A stretch of 63,373 bases of DNA, filler included, from an uncultured bacterium (GTDB taxonomy: Bacteria; DAOPZR01), in assembly GCA_964637655.1 (NCBI GenBank). It is 3 parts of 3 records of this genome, joined end to end, with 100 filler letters (N's around TTAATTAATTAA, not from the genome) between each part and the next. Parts side by side here need not be neighbours in the genome. Positions count along the whole stretch, not along the records: positions 1 to 21,860 come from CAZWUZ010000025.1; 2 more parts are not named here. One strand, 5' to 3'. Positions 14,711-42,898 of this stretch are shown piece by piece; the first letter of the stretch is position 1, and each line of letters starts with the position of its first letter. The translations under genes were made by a program, and so were the position numbers. The notes beneath the pieces are model-generated. The model worked only from the letters and a program-made list of their open reading frames with translations. It was not told the DNA's origin and made no database searches.

Positions 14711-15595
14711 ATGAGTGACGTACTTGTCGCGCTGGGGCTGACGCTGTTCGCCGGGATGGCGACCGGCATCGGCAGCTGCATCGCCTTTTTCGCCCCGCGC
14801 ACCAACTACCGCTTTCTCTCCGTGGCGACCGGCTTTTCCGCCGGCGTGATGCTCTATGTGTCGTTTGTCGAGATTCTCGCCAAGGGTGAGCAGGCACTGA
14901 CCGAGGCCTACGGGGCGACGGCGGGCGCGTGGGCGAATGTCGCGGCGTTTTTCGCCGGCATGCTCTTTATCGGGCTGATCGACAACCTCATCCCGGCGGC
15001 GGAAAACCCGCACGAGACGCATCCCGAGGCGGAACTGGCCCCGCTGCATAACCCGAACGCGCCGCTCCCTGATTTCAGCGCTGACGGGCCCGGGTTCGGC
15101 GACGGGCATGACCACGGGCATCACCATCACAAACTGATGCGCATGGGGCTCTTTACCGCGCTGGCCATCGGCATCCACAATTTCCCTGAGGGGCTGGCCA
15201 CCTTCCTTGCCGCGCTGCAGGACCCCGCGCTCGGACTGGCTATCGCCATCGCCATCGCACTGCACAATATCCCCGAGGGGATCAGCGTCTCCGTCCCGAT
15301 TTTCTACGCCACGGGGAGCCGCATGAAGGCGCTTGCCTACTCGCTGCTCAGCGGGCTGGCGGAACCGGTCGGCGCGCTCATTGCCTATGCCGGACTGCGC
15401 CTGTTCCTCGGCGGCGCGGCCGTGCCGCCCGAGGTGATGGGCTACGCTTTCGGCGGGGTCGCGGGCATCATGGTCTATATCAGCATCGACGAGCTGCTCC
15501 CGGCCAGCCGCACCTACGGCAAGGGGCATGATTCGATTCTCGGGCTGGCCGGCGGCATGCTGGTGATGGCGCTGTCGCTGCTGCTGATGCGGTAA
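14711..15595 (+). CDS. zupT: ZIP-family zinc/iron transporter with His-rich loop
   Basis: [40 protein letters not shown] motifs; HDHGHHHH loop. Confidence 0.92.
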
Positions 15596-15695: not shown

Positions 15696-16166
15696 ATGGA
15701 GACGGCTATGAGCAGAAACCTGCATACGGTTGCCGCGGCGGAAGCAGTGCAGCGGCTCCCCTCGCGCGAACTGACGTTGGGTGACATCGTGTTCCTGCAG
15801 TCCGGCGACAAGGTGCCGGCCGATGTGCGGCTGCTCGAGGTCAGGAACCTGCAGGTGGACGAATCCGCCCTCACGGGCGAGGCCGCGCCGGTGGAACAAA
15901 ATATCGCGCCCCCGCCGGCGGAGACGGTACTGGCCGACCGCACCTGCATGGCGTATGGCGGGTCGCTGGTCACCTACGGCCAGGCGCGGGTCATGGTCAT
16001 CGCCATCGGTGACGCGACCGAGAACGGGCGCATCGCACAGATGGTGCAGGACGCCCCGGAACTGGAAACCGTCCTGACGCTGCGCGGCGGCAACACCGAT
16101 TTCGCCACCATGGGGACGATGTTCGGGTTTGCCGCGATGATGTTCCTCGACGTGGCATTAGGATGA
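15696..16166 (+). pseudogene. Chimeric remnant: P-type ATPase N-terminus + actuator domain fused in frame to the last helix of a GufA/ZIP11-type transporter
   Basis: GDIVFLQSGDKVPADVRL...VDESALTGE (actuator domain) without DKTGT or membrane core. Ends GGNTDFATMGTMFGFAAMMFLDVALG, typical of a ZIP C-terminus. Confidence 0.7.
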
Positions 16167-16773: not shown

Positions 16774-18036
16774 ATGATGACGATGCCGGTACGCAGCCAT
16801 GGCACGCTGGCGCGCCTTGTGCATCACGAGGCGGCACCCGGGGTGCTGCTCGTGCTGGCGGCGCTGCTGGCGATGTTCTGCGCCAACACCCCGCTGGCGG
16901 ACTACTACCACCTGCTGCTGAACACGCCCGCGTCGGTTACCGTCGGCGGTGTGGGGATCACCAAGCCGCTGCTGCTGTGGATCAACGACGGGCTGATGGC
17001 GGTCTTTTTCTTTGCGGTCGGACTTGAACTGAAACGCGAATTTCTGCACGGTGATTTGCGCGACCGGCGCGCGGTGCTGCTGCCGGGGATGGCTGCCCTC
17101 GGGGGCATGTTCATGCCCGCGGTCATCTACGTGCTCATCAACGCGGGCGACGCGACGGCGCTGCGCGGCTGGGCCATCCCCGCGGCGACGGATATCGCCT
17201 TCGCGGTCGGCGTGCTCGCGCTGCTGGGCAAGCGCGTCCCGCACTCGCTGCGCATCTTCCTGCTCTCGCTGGCCATCCTCGACGACCTCGGGGCGGTCAT
17301 CATCATCGCGCTCTTCTATACCGCCGACCTGTCAACGTTGTCGCTCGCTATCGCTGGCATCTGCCTCGTGCTGCTCGCCGCGCTCAACTACGCGGGGACA
17401 CGCCGGGTCGGGCTCTACCTGCTGGTTGGCGCCATCATGTGGGTCTCGGTGCTCAAGTCGGGGGTGCATGCGACACTGGCGGGCGTGGCGCTCGCGCTCT
17501 TCATCCCGCACGTGCCCGACCCGCTGCACGCGGCGGTGTCGGAGAAGCGGCGGCGCGCGGCGCGGCACGGAGAGGAGGAGACGCACCATGAACGGCGGCA
17601 GGTGCTGACCGTGGCGCGGCGCCTCGAAATGACCCTGCACCCGTGGGTGGCCTTTCTCATCATGCCGGTCTTCGCCTTCGCCAATGCGGGCGTCGACTTG
17701 CGCGGCCTGACTGCCGCCGACCTGCTGGCGCCCGTGCCGCTCGGCATTGCGCTCGGCCTGTTTCTCGGCAAGCAGTATGGCGTTTTCCTCATGGCGTGGC
17801 TGACCATCCGCCTCGGCGGCGCCACGCTTCCGGCCGGCGCCACCTGGCGGCAACTCTACGGGGTGAGCGTGCTCTGCGGCATCGGCTTCACCATGTCGCT
17901 CTTTATCGCTTCGCTCGCCTTCGAATCGGCCGGCGGCACCTATGCCGCGACCGACCGTCTCGGCATCCTCGCCGGCACGATGCTCTCGGCACTACTTGGC
18001 TATGTGTTGTTGCGCCGAGGTCAGGCGGTACGATGA
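16774..18036 (+). CDS. nhaA: Na+/H+ antiporter NhaA
   Basis: WINDGLMAVFFF, GWAIPAATDIAFA, LAILDDLGA, KSGVHATLAGV, LCGIGFTMSLFI. Confidence 0.95.
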   Translation: MMTMPVRSHGTLARLVHHEAAPGVLLVLAALLAMFCANTPLADYYHLLLNTPASVTVGGVGITKPLLLWINDGLMAVFFFAVGLELKREFLHGDLRDRRAVLLPGMAALGGMFMPAVIYVLINAGDATALRGWAIPAATDIAFAVGVLALLGKRVPHSLRIFLLSLAILDDLGAVIIIALFYTADLSTLSLAIAGICLVLLAALNYAGTRRVGLYLLVGAIMWVSVLKSGVHATLAGVALALFIPHVPDPLHAAVSEKRRRAARHGEEETHHERRQVLTVARRLEMTLHPWVAFLIMPVFAFANAGVDLRGLTAADLLAPVPLGIALGLFLGKQYGVFLMAWLTIRLGGATLPAGATWRQLYGVSVLCGIGFTMSLFIASLAFESAGGTYAATDRLGILAGTMLSALLGYVLLRRGQAVR

Positions 18037-19556
18037 TACGACTCCCGGCTGGTAAGCCGGTGACGGTGAGGGTAACGTGTGACTGGACGGAAGTGTTCCG
18101 GAATGAAGCGAAAGCACTCCGCGCCACGGCAGTGCTGCCGGAGTTTCTAACGCGACAGCGCTGGTATGCAGGACGTGGACGGTGCTTGCGCTCATTGCGC
18201 ATCAAGGAGATCAATACACTGCGAGCGGTCGCTACAGATGTACGAGTCCTGCTGGTTACCGCACGGTACGCGTCAGGCAAGCCTGCCCACTATCAGGTGC
18301 CGCTGGCATATTGTCGGGGCGAGCGTGGCCGGCGACTGGCTGTGCGCTATCCGCACGCAGTGCTTTGCCGCATATGTTTGGCGACCGGTGACGGGGTTAT
18401 TCTTGACGCGGTCTATCTGCCCGCATTCCGACGCGCGCTTCTCGTCGCGTGTGGCGGTCACGCTGCCGGCAGCGGTCGTGTACTCACGGCGCAACAAAGT
18501 AATACCGCGTTGTTGTTCAGTCGCCGATACTTCCTGAAACTATACCGCCGTGTCGAGGTCGGAGTGCATCCGGAAGCGGAACTGGGGAATATTTTCGCGC
18601 TGCAGCAATTTGCCGGTGTGCCGCATCTGCGCGGGGTGCTCAACTGGCATTGCGGTCGGGGTGTGATGACTCTCGCGCTGCTACAGGACGCGGTGTCATT
18701 TCGTCGGGACGCCTGGCAGCAGACGGTAGCTGCACTTGCCGCCTTTAACCGGAAAGTTGTGCATCGTTCGGCCGCTACCGCGACACCTGCGGCCGTGCGT
18801 GCGCTGTGTGGCAAACGGTATTTCCGACAGGTGGCCGCGCTGGGAACTGCGACGGCAGCACTGCATCGCGCGCTGGCAGCAGGCAGCGCCCCGGAGTTTG
18901 TTCCGGTGCTCCTGACGCGCAGCGACCGGCGACGTGAAGTGGCGATACTGTGTGAAAACGTGCGACTGACATTGCGGCAGTTGCGTGTGGCGATACCCGG
19001 CCTGCCGCAGGCACAACAGCAAGCGGCACGGCAGGTGCTGACTCATCGCCGAATGCTGCTCAAAGAGGCCAGAGCACTGGCGGCGGTGCGGACGGGCGGG
19101 CGACGGCTGCGCCTGCACGGCGATTATCATCTCGGGCAGGTGCTGGTCACGGCGCAAGGACCGGTTGTTGCTGATTGGGAAGGAGCGACGGCACTACCGC
19201 TGGCAGATCGCCGCAGTAAGCAGTCACCGCTGCGCGACGCGGCGGGCATAGTGCGTTCCTTTGACTATGTCTGCGCCTACGTGTGGCAGGTTGCGGCGCG
19301 GCACTTTCATGCGGCAAACCGCGTACGACTCTGGATGGAACTCTGGCGTGATGTATCGACTGCCGAGTTCCTTGCCGCCTATCGTGCGGCTGCTGGCAGC
19401 GCGCTGCCGCCGTTGATGGAACAGGAGCGGATGCTGCGTGCCTACCTGCTGGAAAAGGCGCTGTACGAGGTGCGCTACGAATTGCACTACCGACCGGACT
19501 GGCTGGCGGTGCCGCTGAACTACCTGACGAAGCGAAGCGGCGTTGACCCGGAATAA
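18033..19556 (+). CDS. Maltokinase (Mak/Pep2)-like protein, divergent, not fused to TreS
   Basis: FLTRQRWYAG, QQSNT, LKLYRR, RLHGDYHLGQVL, LRDAAGIVRSFDY, LLEKALYEVRYEL..RPDW..VPL. Start ATG overlaps the nhaA stop (ATGA). Confidence 0.8.
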   Translation: MIRLPAGKPVTVRVTCDWTEVFRNEAKALRATAVLPEFLTRQRWYAGRGRCLRSLRIKEINTLRAVATDVRVLLVTARYASGKPAHYQVPLAYCRGERGRRLAVRYPHAVLCRICLATGDGVILDAVYLPAFRRALLVACGGHAAGSGRVLTAQQSNTALLFSRRYFLKLYRRVEVGVHPEAELGNIFALQQFAGVPHLRGVLNWHCGRGVMTLALLQDAVSFRRDAWQQTVAALAAFNRKVVHRSAATATPAAVRALCGKRYFRQVAALGTATAALHRALAAGSAPEFVPVLLTRSDRRREVAILCENVRLTLRQLRVAIPGLPQAQQQAARQVLTHRRMLLKEARALAAVRTGGRRLRLHGDYHLGQVLVTAQGPVVADWEGATALPLADRRSKQSPLRDAAGIVRSFDYVCAYVWQVAARHFHAANRVRLWMELWRDVSTAEFLAAYRAAAGSALPPLMEQERMLRAYLLEKALYEVRYELHYRPDWLAVPLNYLTKRSGVDPE

Positions 19557-19565
19557 ACTCGACGT

Positions 19566-19594
19566 TTGACAGTAAATGCTTGAATCGCTACACT
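19566..19594 (+). promoter_or_regulatory. sigma70 promoter for 19615 gene
   Basis: TTGACA-N17-TACACT. Confidence 0.7.
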
Positions 19595-19614
19595 GAACTC
19601 ACGAGGGAACGAAC

Positions 19615-20250
19615 ATGAAACCTGGCAAGCAGAGCAAGACTCCGGATGGTGCACGAAACCTGCCTGATGACAGCCATCGGTTCGAAGAATATCGCACCCT
19701 GCGTGCTGAAATAGCCAACAACTCAACTGTTGTTGCGCAGGTGTTCAGCATAACGTTTCCTGCTGCGGCCGCATTGATTGGCTACGGCATAGACAAGGAA
19801 AACTGGCTCGTCTTGCTTTCTCCCTATGCGATTTTGCTCCCGTCGCTGTGGTTTGTTTCCTCACAGGTTGAATCAACCGTCAGAATCTCCACCTACATCC
19901 GGTTGTTCATCGAATCCCGGTGCGCCGGTTTGCGCTGGGAACACCGGTTGTTGCAGGTGCGCAATCGCGCGCAGATGCATGTTTCTGACAGAAGCTACAT
20001 CAAGTCGATAACCGGATTGTATGGAGGAGTCTGTGCGGTTTGCACGGCACTGTCTGGCGCATACTATTCGCAGATGCTTCACCGGGTGCCGTTTACTGAA
20101 GCGGGCCGGATGGGCTATGATGCTGTCTGGGTAACTATCAACGCTACCGTATTGGGCCTTGCTTACTTGGTGCTGAAAGGCGCTGCCAATGCACTCAGCT
20201 CAAAACGCTTCGCCGAATATGAAAAACAATGGCAACAGACGACACAATGA
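19615..20250 (+). CDS. Hypothetical ~4-TM membrane protein (lower GC)
   Basis: 211-aa ORF with RBS GAGG and its own promoter; EEYRTLRAEI motif followed by hydrophobic helices. Confidence 0.7.
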   Translation: MKPGKQSKTPDGARNLPDDSHRFEEYRTLRAEIANNSTVVAQVFSITFPAAAALIGYGIDKENWLVLLSPYAILLPSLWFVSSQVESTVRISTYIRLFIESRCAGLRWEHRLLQVRNRAQMHVSDRSYIKSITGLYGGVCAVCTALSGAYYSQMLHRVPFTEAGRMGYDAVWVTINATVLGLAYLVLKGAANALSSKRFAEYEKQWQQTTQ

Positions 20251-20307: not shown

Positions 20308-21501
20308 ATGAGCGGAGATCCGCTGCTGCTGCTGCTGCTGGCCAGCGCGCTGGTGGTGGTTTCCTACCTGTTCGATGCGCTCGCCCGCGTCAGCCGCGTC
20401 CCCTCGGTGCTGTTGCTGCTCGGGCTGGGGGTCGGGCTGCGCCTCGCCGCTGATGCCGCCGGTGTGCCGGTGCCGCTCCCCGCCCCGCTCATCATCATCC
20501 TCGGCACCCTCGGGCTGATTCTGATCGTGCTTGAGGGCGCGCTGGAACTGTCAGTGGTGAAGGAGAAGCTGCCGCTTATCCGCCGCGCGGGGGGCGCGGC
20601 GCTGCTGGTGCTCGTCCTGACCGCGCTGGCGCTGGCGCTGCTGCTGGTGGCGGCGCTTGACGTGCCGCTGCGTACCGCGCTGCTCAACGCGCTTCCCTTC
20701 GCCGTGATCAGCAGCGCTATTGCCATCCCCGGCAGCAGCGGGTTCGACCCGGCCAAGCGCGAGTTCATCGTCTACGAGTCGACCTTTTCCGACATCCTCG
20801 GCATCATGCTCTTCACCGCGTTGCTCCCCTCGCCGTTTTCCGGGTCGGTCGCCTGGCAGGCGGGCAATCTGCTCGGGGTGGTGGTCCTCGCGGCGGTCGG
20901 CTCGCTGTTGCTCATGCTGATGGTCGAGAAAATCACCACGCACATCAAGTTTTTCCTGATTCTCGCGGTGCTGACCGGGGTCTACGTCATCGCCAAGCAG
21001 CTGCATCTTTCCGCCCTGCTGCTGGTGCTGGTCTTCGGGCTGCTGCTCAACAACAGCCAGGCCTTCAGCCGTTTTCCGCTGCGCGGACTGATCAACGTGA
21101 AACACCTGCGCCATGAGGTGCGCCAGTTCCGCGTTATCGTGCTCGAGAGCGCCTTCCTCGTGCGCACCTTTTTCTTTGTCGCTTTCGGGTTTTACCTCGA
21201 ACTTGGCGGACTGCTGCGCCGCGAGGTTATCGGCATGGCGGTGGCCATCACCGGGATCATCGTGCTGGCCCGCTACCTGCACCTGCGCCACGTGGCGCGC
21301 TGCCCGCTGCTGCCGGAACTGTTCATCGCCCCGCGCGGGCTGATTACCGTGCTGCTGTTCCTGCAGATCCCCGCCGCCCATCGCCTGCCGCTGCTGCCGC
21401 AGGAGACGGTGTTCCTGGTGGTCGCGTTCAGCGGACTGCTGATGCTGAGCGGCACGCTGGCCTGGAAAAAACCGGTGGAACTGCCGGACGACCTGCTGTG
21501 A
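20308..21501 (+). CDS. Cation:proton antiporter (CPA1/NhaP-like)
   Basis: About 12 TM helices; SSAIAIP, YESTFSDILGI, FLVRTFFF, APRGLITVLL motifs. Confidence 0.85.
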   Translation: MSGDPLLLLLLASALVVVSYLFDALARVSRVPSVLLLLGLGVGLRLAADAAGVPVPLPAPLIIILGTLGLILIVLEGALELSVVKEKLPLIRRAGGAALLVLVLTALALALLLVAALDVPLRTALLNALPFAVISSAIAIPGSSGFDPAKREFIVYESTFSDILGIMLFTALLPSPFSGSVAWQAGNLLGVVVLAAVGSLLLMLMVEKITTHIKFFLILAVLTGVYVIAKQLHLSALLLVLVFGLLLNNSQAFSRFPLRGLINVKHLRHEVRQFRVIVLESAFLVRTFFFVAFGFYLELGGLLRREVIGMAVAITGIIVLARYLHLRHVARCPLLPELFIAPRGLITVLLFLQIPAAHRLPLLPQETVFLVVAFSGLLMLSGTLAWKKPVELPDDLL

Positions 21502-21506
21502 ACCGC

Positions 21507-21644
21507 TCAGGTGACCGCGTCGGTGATCTGGTCGTTGACTGACGTGGGAAACGCGCCGCCGCTGACCGCGTCGAGGCCGCTGGCCGGCAGGGTGCTGACG
21601 GCGGATTCCGCCGCCGGTGTGACGGATGTGGTTTTGGGCTGCAT
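21507..21644 (-). CDS. 45-aa microprotein: double-glycine leader + RebB-N-terminus-like core (not in ORF track)
   Basis: Translates to MQPKTTSVTPAAESAVSTLPASGLDAVSGG-AFPTSVNDQITDAVT*. RBS GGAGGT at 21651-21656; promoter TTGACA-N17-TACAGT at 21665-21693. Confidence 0.75.
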   Translation of the reverse strand: MQPKTTSVTPAAESAVSTLPASGLDAVSGGAFPTSVNDQITDAVT

Positions 21645-21664
21645 AACTGCACCTCCAGCATGAT

Positions 21665-21693
21665 ACTGTAGCCGCCGGCAGGCCGGCTGTCAA
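21665..21693 (-). promoter_or_regulatory. sigma70 promoter for the 45-aa microprotein
   Basis: TTGACA-N17-TACAGT on the minus strand, just upstream of GGAGGT. Confidence 0.7.
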
Positions 21694-21860
21694 GCCGCAG
21701 CGGGCCGGACACCGGCGCGGGGGGCCGGCACTTGTTTTTTACCGCAAAGTGTGCTATTAGTTGGGTGAGAGGCAGCACCCCGCGGCCTGGCTGCGGGGAC
21801 TAAGCGGGCGGCCGGCACAAACGATGCCTGCTGCAGCCGCGACAACCGGGGTGCCGTGCG

Positions 21861-21960
21861 NNNNNNNNNNNNNNNNNNNNNNNNNNNNNNNNNNNNNNNN
21901 NNNNTTAATTAATTAANNNNNNNNNNNNNNNNNNNNNNNNNNNNNNNNNNNNNNNNNNNN
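21861..21960. other. Artificial contig join
   Basis: N44-TTAATTAATTAA-N44 six-frame stop linker. Confidence 0.98.
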
Positions 21961-42798: not shown

Positions 42799-42898
42799 NN
42801 NNNNNNNNNNNNNNNNNNNNNNNNNNNNNNNNNNNNNNNNNNTTAATTAATTAANNNNNNNNNNNNNNNNNNNNNNNNNNNNNNNNNNNNNNNNNNNN
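42799..42898. other. Artificial contig join
   Basis: N44-TTAATTAATTAA-N44 linker. Confidence 0.98.

Follow-up and report, generated by a model that had tools for sequence, protein, structure and literature searches.

A 45-codon open reading frame ending in the N-terminal signature of R-body (Reb) proteins, possibly the remnant of an extended reb gene

Close to the end of a contig from an uncultured bacterium, the minus strand carries a short open reading frame (ORF) whose product joins a segment ending in a double glycine to the first residues of R-body (Reb) proteins. The question raised by this locus is whether the product is an exported peptide, as the initial annotation proposed by reading it as a double-glycine leader followed by a Reb-like core, or what is left of a longer gene. 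The window, that is, the whole stretch of 63,373 nucleotides analysed, consists of three contigs, with N-run linkers around TTAATTAATTAA at positions 21861-21960 and 42799-42898. The ORF (21507-21644, minus strand; 45 codons plus TGA, with an ATG start) falls within 354 bases of the first contig's end. Its length and the translation previously given were confirmed by the sequence, and the contig end is indeed close by, the linker starting at 21861, 216 nt upstream of the ATG. The description as unannotated needs correction, for the exact 45-aa product is already present in the protein collection and some gene caller had therefore called the ORF, which is thus not wholly unannotated. The features of the locus are collected in Table 1. 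We give about an even chance to the reading that the ORF is the 5' remnant, still capable of expression, of a reb gene that had an N-terminal extension.

Table 1. Positions of the features at the locus, counted along the window
Feature	Position	Strand	Remarks
Na+/H+ exchanger-family gene, complete, 397 aa, convergent	20308..21501	+	PF00999; GC3 0.88, native-like
5-nt spacer between convergent stop codons	21502..21506	.	Rearrangement junction ~21502-21509
TGA stop exactly at the end of the reb homology	21507..21509	-	Takes the place of invariant Q17
15-codon Reb N-terminal signature (AFPTSVNDQITDAVT)	21510..21554	-	Residues 2-16 of RebB-family proteins
30-codon N-terminal extension ('leader'), A/S/T/P/G-rich, ending in GG	21555..21644	-	GC3 0.87
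Shine-Dalgarno-like GGAGGT	21651..21656	-	6 nt before the ATG
Sigma-70-type promoter-like site, TTGACA-17 nt-TACAGT	21665..21693	-	10/12 consensus positions
Terminator-like hairpin plus T run	21712..21738	+	1 found, shuffle mean 0.9 (weak)

Both the promoter and the ribosome-binding site claimed for the ORF were located, and the TTGACA-17-TACAGT arrangement is the sole such site in 21000-21860, where 50 shuffles gave 0.0 on average. GGAGG followed by 6-9 nt and ATG also stands ahead of many Pfam-confirmed genes in the window, including those for a chemoreceptor, a flavodiiron protein, FliK, a sigma-54 activator and a histidine kinase, indicating that the start of the ORF is of the native type. 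The GC3 of the ORF is 0.87, equal in leader and core, and thus within the range of 0.81-0.92 occupied by 11 of the 13 window genes measured, the two atypical ones being hyp211 (0.59) and a maltokinase-like ORF (0.65). For the 216 nt upstream of the ATG, GC3 is just 0.61-0.75, whichever frame is taken. The native-like value therefore fits long residence of the ORF as coding DNA, and is also in favour of an origin as the stump of a native gene. The Rfam search on 21300-21860 gave no match, folding of the 216 nt upstream of the ATG showed nothing out of the ordinary (z = -1.4), and no repeat of 21502-21860 was found elsewhere in the window.

The metagenome scan, in which the query was the ORF plus four upstream in-frame codons, returned eight loci, and in seven of them (L037-L040 and L042-L044) the matching stretch opens a gene of 76-129 aa. 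The seven proteins start M-(A/S)FPT(S/A)VNDQITDAVT-Q, followed by (S/A/T)NVKV, and PF11747 (RebB) was assigned to all five that were tested, with E values from 7e-23 to 2.8e-29. Residues 31-45 of the ORF product are identical, 15 out of 15, to residues 2-16 of the metagenome RebB-family proteins L039 and L037b. At the DNA level 40 of 45 bases agree with L039, all five differences being synonymous third positions, and tblastn against the 63-kb window gave E=0.004 for the Reb match of the core. Taken together, the protein identity, the tblastn value and the synonymous-only differences argue that the match is not due to chance. The family of L039 has 936 representatives at E<=0.001 among 1.84 billion, and its relatives form 2,881 clusters of 58-188 aa, many of which are labelled 'RebB family R body protein' (Paraburkholderia, Dyella, Xanthomonas, Lysobacter). 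Among the best 120 relatives of L039, 12 start exactly with M, the window 15-mer and Q. The Reb N-terminus given in the initial annotation is therefore right, as seven metagenome genes begin with it, and the core does copy it from its first residue and then stop, TGA following T16. In a 2026 survey (PMC13430693), (D)QITD flanked by two conserved prolines is given as the Reb signature; the RebB N-terminal signature (A/S)FPT.VN.QITD.VT, including (D)QITD, is present in the ORF. Judged by its sequence, the core genuinely reproduces the Reb N-terminus. The accessible texts of the literature on Reb yielded no direct data on the role of this N-terminus.

The homology between the ORF and the reb genes extends over exactly 45 nt, from codon 2 to codon 16. 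At the upstream limit the ATG of the family is replaced by GGC in the window, and nothing beyond it aligns; at the downstream limit the stop codon occupies the position of Q17, which is invariant in a 30-sequence alignment of the RebB family. All seven recovered Reb genes continue beyond T16 with Q(S/A/T)NVKV to their full 76-129 aa, the continuation past the core in Reb relatives amounting to 60-110 further residues. A RebB-like reading past the stop in relatives had been named at the outset as the mark of a truncated reb pseudogene, and it was found in 7/7 Reb genes, which are, however, family members and not orthologous loci. Since the RebB model of Pfam begins at I11 of true members, the ORF covers only positions 1-6 of its 68, and the gathering threshold of PF11747 (24 bits, 68-position model) is not reached. 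Accordingly, the alignment of the core to Pfam RebB that had been suggested as a check is confined to six of 68 positions, with no Pfam match, and the 45-aa peptide hit no family of Pfam or NCBIfam at E<=10. The second proline (APA), the KxxxD/E, NAV and QQ(Q) motifs and Q17 are all missing from the ORF, which ends at T16. By these comparisons the ORF is not a RebB family member but a family-derived fragment, and with six of 68 domain positions the peptide cannot be an R-body subunit. No further Reb piece was detected in the 63-kb window by tblastn of eight Reb proteins, whereas six of the seven true reb loci carry 2-13 tandem paralogues. The sharp limits of the homology, the reading-on of all seven genes past the invariant Q17, the coverage of the RebB model and the lack of other Reb pieces in the window all favour the reading as a stump. 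Read-through or frameshifting at the TGA was rejected, the three downstream frames, inspected by eye and by tblastn, showing no Reb-like sequence. A RebB family search of four genomes found none, and the control genomes likewise gave none.

The course of events that we envisage is as follows. In this lineage, the ancestor would have been a RebB-family (R-body) gene with 30 additional residues at its N-terminus. Everything after codon 16 of the Reb part would then have been lost through a deletion or rearrangement, so that the stump came to be joined tail-to-tail to the 3' end of the resident Na+/H+ exchanger gene with TGA directly after it, and, as its own promoter, ribosome site and start codon were kept, the 45-residue peptide may still be made. 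We infer that the full-length ancestor existed and that the stump is without a function of its own. In agreement with such a break, the sequence downstream of the homology is the complement of the exchanger coding sequence. If the ancestor was a native, extended reb gene, nothing more is needed to explain the codon composition and the intactness of promoter and ribosome site. An extended ancestor is plausible, because internal Reb motifs without Met exist in three of 150 RebB representatives examined: P0125 and P0149 consist of a lipoprotein signal, about 130 aa and RebB, and P0138 of another N-terminal domain of about 130 aa and RebB, the motif standing at the junction without Met in each case. 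In a further RebB protein, P0029, three tandem copies of VN.QITD precede the domain.

The exchanger gene on the other side of the junction is complete, its relatives L010 and L014 aligning over residues 1-397 of 397, and in a scan of the genome collection its best relatives were 35-47% identical, mostly from Bacteroidota. The junction itself is crossed, with 0 differences, by two Logan contigs, X1 (461 nt on 21400-21860) and X2 (596 nt, on 21458-21860 plus 193 nt past the contig end). As these were built separately, a chimera made by the assembler is unlikely, although the support by X1 and X2 is not fully independent because both come from one wastewater study that possibly includes the source sample. 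The junction is real DNA, unlikely to be a chimera, and this too agrees with the proposed rearrangement. Two other runs, X5 and X6, contain relatives that are ~92-97% identical in the exchanger gene; in the contigs listed for them the ORF is uncovered. The groundwater run X6, in which the exchanger is ~92% identical, holds a 151-nt contig on 21655-21803, across the ORF promoter and the region upstream of it, without any substitution and with CG inserted after 21695, beside the -35 hexamer; this contig may come from a closer, low-depth strain, or it may represent a conserved element.

Another stump is present on the same contig, again in favour of the view that the ORF is one: the match of the 156-aa ORF at 15696-16166 (plus strand) is confined to the actuator part of P-type (E1-E2) ATPases. 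This ORF lies among ion-transport genes, namely a ZIP-like ORF (14711-15595) and an NhaA-like ORF (16774-18036), as named from their sequences, and the PF00999 exchanger. The region 19500-20250, with G+C of 0.52-0.53 against about 0.65-0.72 around it, includes a 211-aa membrane-like orphan ORF of GC3 0.59 that belongs to no Pfam family, and is possibly recently acquired DNA or a non-gene.

The leader stands alone, which also favours the reading as a stump. Within 5.8 billion protein clusters, the search for leader homologues among proteins of 24-79 aa recovered the ORF itself only, and none of the 233 candidates of 80-2000 aa that shared words with the query scored; nor did leader-derived patterns give a confirmed match in the metagenome or viral scans. 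GG ahead of the Reb motif was found in none of 270 Reb-like proteins examined, so that the homologue with both GG and core on which the initial model depended is missing from all three sets. Against 401 genomes of one phylum the 45-aa peptide gave weak low-complexity matches (best E 0.02), none of them to the core. The idea that the leader consists of degenerate copies of the Reb motif was discarded, the resemblance not being significant against shuffles (p=0.17 for protein, 0.09 for DNA). An 11-nt direct repeat links 21563-21573 with 21512-21522.

Several observations sit less easily with a functionless stump. Its stop comes at once at the end of the homology, which by an uncomputed estimate would be expected a few times in a hundred at a random GC-rich breakpoint. 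Relative to the family consensus the 15 residues carry no non-synonymous change, which points either to a recent break or to selection on the peptide. The extended ancestor is itself unobserved, since 0/270 Reb-like proteins have GG before the motif. In addition, the leader has hydrophobic residues spaced in register with GG to a degree improbable by chance, as described below, and certain phage proteins keep the Reb motif outside RebB domains, so that a motif-only product is not absurd.

These phage proteins came to light through the eighth locus of the metagenome scan, L041, which is phage-like in having a head maturation protease. Its match, L041:26-1069, is a 348-aa membrane protein with internal GFPTSVNDQITDAVTQSN and AT-rich codons. 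Relatives of this protein are encoded at 25 IMG/VR loci (L045-L069), and in the resulting family of 26 proteins, the loci of which are not all independent because some are near-identical, the motif is full in 19, partial in one and absent in six. It forms a conserved island in a tail that otherwise varies and that follows a conserved part with membrane and coiled-coil segments, and a second copy, QITDSVTQ, occurs in eight of the 26. The viral scan with the window peptide detected a 338-aa motif protein encoded between a portal gene and a 453-aa ORF (L070:2866-3879); further motif proteins are a tail-anchored one of 92 aa near an Hsp20 gene (L071:2959-3234), those of 111 aa at L072/L073:2800-3132 and an L041-type protein (L074:866-2005). 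In pairwise comparison the four phage contexts share only the motif stretch of 16-27 residues, with the exception of the L071-L072 pairing, where up to 47 residues align at 51% identity. A full RebB domain is present neither in the 181 kb of the 26 L041-family loci nor in five viral records, two of which are 99-100% complete. All phage copies run on to VTQ and stand in low-complexity linkers, and two of the four contexts adjoin head-morphogenesis genes (portal; head maturation protease), a link which we report as an observation and not as an explanation. Among cultured phages, tblastn of the L071 motif protein gave no match, and the relative of the L041 family in Microcystis phage Mel-JY01 is without the motif. 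The recurrence of the Reb signature without the RebB domain in four unrelated phage contexts indicates that it behaves as a portable short motif, and the Reb N-terminal motif may be a portable module. Our literature search found no description of the motif in such phage proteins, and a stand-alone Reb N-terminus circulating in phages is a new observation.

The phage proteins speak for the possibility, unlikely as we consider it, that the ORF encodes a functional cytoplasmic microprotein, in which the Reb signature would serve as a portable motif for binding, carried on a flexible A/S/T/P/G linker. GG would then be just part of the linker, and the peptide would modulate assembly, as motif-only phage proteins may, by binding the partner of the motif, be it Reb subunits, a factor for Reb assembly or a shared chaperone. 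The phage proteins keep [AS/G]FP..(V/I)N.QITD(A/S)VTQ without a RebB domain, in AT-rich codons and, like the window ORF, after linkers rich in P/S/T/G; within the L041 family it stands out as a conserved island, three further contexts share it alone, and two of the records lacking the domain are complete phage records. The native-type expression signals and the exact stop of the window ORF agree with such a function. Opposed to it are the singleton status of the ORF, with no homologue in the protein clusters or the metagenome scan, and the terminal Q, which is kept after VT in 19/19 full copies of the L041 family and in 6/6 matches of the second viral scan (one of these being the L045 contig again) and is missing from the window. 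Moreover, the 63-kb window contains no reb gene.

The proposal made first for this ORF, that a C39-peptidase ABC transporter would cut after GG and export the 15-residue Reb mimic as a signal, nucleator or inhibitor, appears to us quite unlikely. Double-glycine leaders follow the consensus LSxxELxxIxGG, with GG (or GA/GS) at the cleavage site, hydrophobic residues at -4, -7, -12 and -15 and usually an acidic residue at about -8. Before the GG of the ORF stand V, L, L and V at -15, -12, -7 and -4, a register reached by 0.028% of 200,000 shuffles in what is a post hoc test against this consensus; similar hydrophobic spacing is given by amphipathic helices in general. At -8 the leader has G, with S at -9 and D at -6, so that the usual acidic residue is missing. 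No curated leader or bacteriocin model of Pfam or NCBIfam matched the peptide at E<=10, and the lantibiotic-A and ComC clusters found among its language-model neighbours in the Atlas scored 0.83-0.84, under the lead level of 0.9. The likeness to double-glycine leaders holds for GG and the hydrophobic register, and not for a curated model or the acidic -8; the resemblance is real but unproven. What speaks for export beyond the register is that GG directly precedes the first canonical Reb residue, so that cleavage there, if it occurs, would exactly regenerate the canonical Reb N-terminus, and that the 30+15 layout resembles that of peptide-pheromone precursors. The lipoprotein-type signals of P0125 and P0149 also suggest that some RebB domains are exported, and thus that some Reb-like domains may act outside the cytoplasm.

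None of the 44 large ORFs scanned in the window encodes a C39-peptidase ABC transporter or other peptidase of this kind, a RiPP modification enzyme or a Reb protein. The initial statement that no reb, transporter or modification gene is in view accordingly holds for these 44 ORFs of the 63-kb window, and the suggestion of a new RiPP precursor is left with no RiPP-type enzyme adjacent. As no leader model, transporter, enzyme or reb gene was found in these scans, export and RiPP status are no more than tentative suggestions from the sequence pattern of the peptide. The 0/270 count of GG before the motif weighs against export, and since R-bodies are described as cytoplasmic polymers (PMC8322103), an exported mimic would be without an obvious target.

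A broader idea combines both functional proposals and, in our estimation, is likewise decidedly doubtful: the first 15-17 residues of Reb would be a self-sufficient portable motif, and the 45-residue precursor of this bacterium, once rid of its amphipathic GG leader, would free the exact canonical Reb N-terminus as a peptide that caps, nucleates or blocks R-body-type polymers or an assembly factor. Phages would illustrate the portable part of this idea, with the motif on portal-adjacent (scaffold-position), protease-adjacent membrane and small tail-anchored proteins.

The promoter could matter for its RNA rather than for the peptide. The strong promoter that survived may drive transcription across the exchanger gene from its 3' side, yielding an antisense RNA that tunes exchanger expression, the coding content being irrelevant; we regard this as improbable. 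The promoter is consensus-like and the stop codons are 5 nt apart, no minus-strand terminator-like site follows the ORF within 21000-21860, and the plus-strand hairpin, situated 210 nt past the exchanger stop and just upstream of the -35 of the ORF, implies overlapping convergent transcripts. As this hairpin lies beyond the ORF promoter, exchanger transcripts may run antisense across the whole ORF. Antisense action leaves the strong ribosome site, the ATG and the perfect Reb 15-mer unexplained, and it is compatible with the ORF being a stump, hence not a true alternative to it. Finally, a misjoining of a reb 5' end to the exchanger gene in assembly is suggested by the position of the ORF within the last 354 bases of a metagenome-assembled contig, but is extremely improbable, as X1 and X2, though from one study and not fully independent, cross the junction unchanged.

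On balance, the functional readings gain from the exact stop, the undrifted 15-mer, the unseen ancestor, the register of the leader and the phage precedent, and they lose because the ORF is a singleton, the terminal Q is absent and no partner, transporter or transcript is known. If the ORF is the stump of an extended reb gene, nothing sets it apart from other gene remnants, and its modest interest would lie in being the sole trace of R-body genes from this uncultured lineage and in hinting that N-terminal extensions open to cleavage existed in some Reb proteins. Should the peptide prove functional, it would be the first free Reb mimic of natural origin and a handle on the nucleation or control of R-bodies. 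The GG-ending extension before a Reb N-terminus is new, although extended or truncated homologues may stand in the supplements of surveys. The stand-alone motif in head-morphogenesis-linked phage proteins suggests a binding module, and may outweigh the ORF itself in importance.

The system with which the ORF is to be compared in the first place is that of RebB, i.e. PF11747 'Killing trait', with RebA, RebB and RebD of Caedibacter taeniospiralis and their homologues. Like Reb domain 1, as described in the survey (PMC13430693), the core has (D)QITD and the first of the two flanking prolines. Unlike RebB proteins, the ORF has a 30-residue extension instead of Met, and unlike true reb loci it has no tandem reb array nearby in the 63 kb. 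In having other sequence ahead of the Reb motif it resembles P0125, P0149, P0138 and P0029, from which it differs in that these retain the whole RebB domain and have N-terminal parts unrelated to the leader of the window. With the precursors of class II bacteriocins and of ComC/CSP-type pheromones it shares a GG directly before the putative mature peptide and a size of 30+15 residues; unlike in double-glycine precursors, the core is here a piece taken from a structural protein, and no curated model matches. The phage motif proteins resemble the window ORF in carrying the motif of 15-17 residues after a low-complexity linker and without a RebB domain, but their copies are internal, end in VTQ, recur in families and are sometimes duplicated, whereas the copy in the window is C-terminal, ends in VT and is a singleton.
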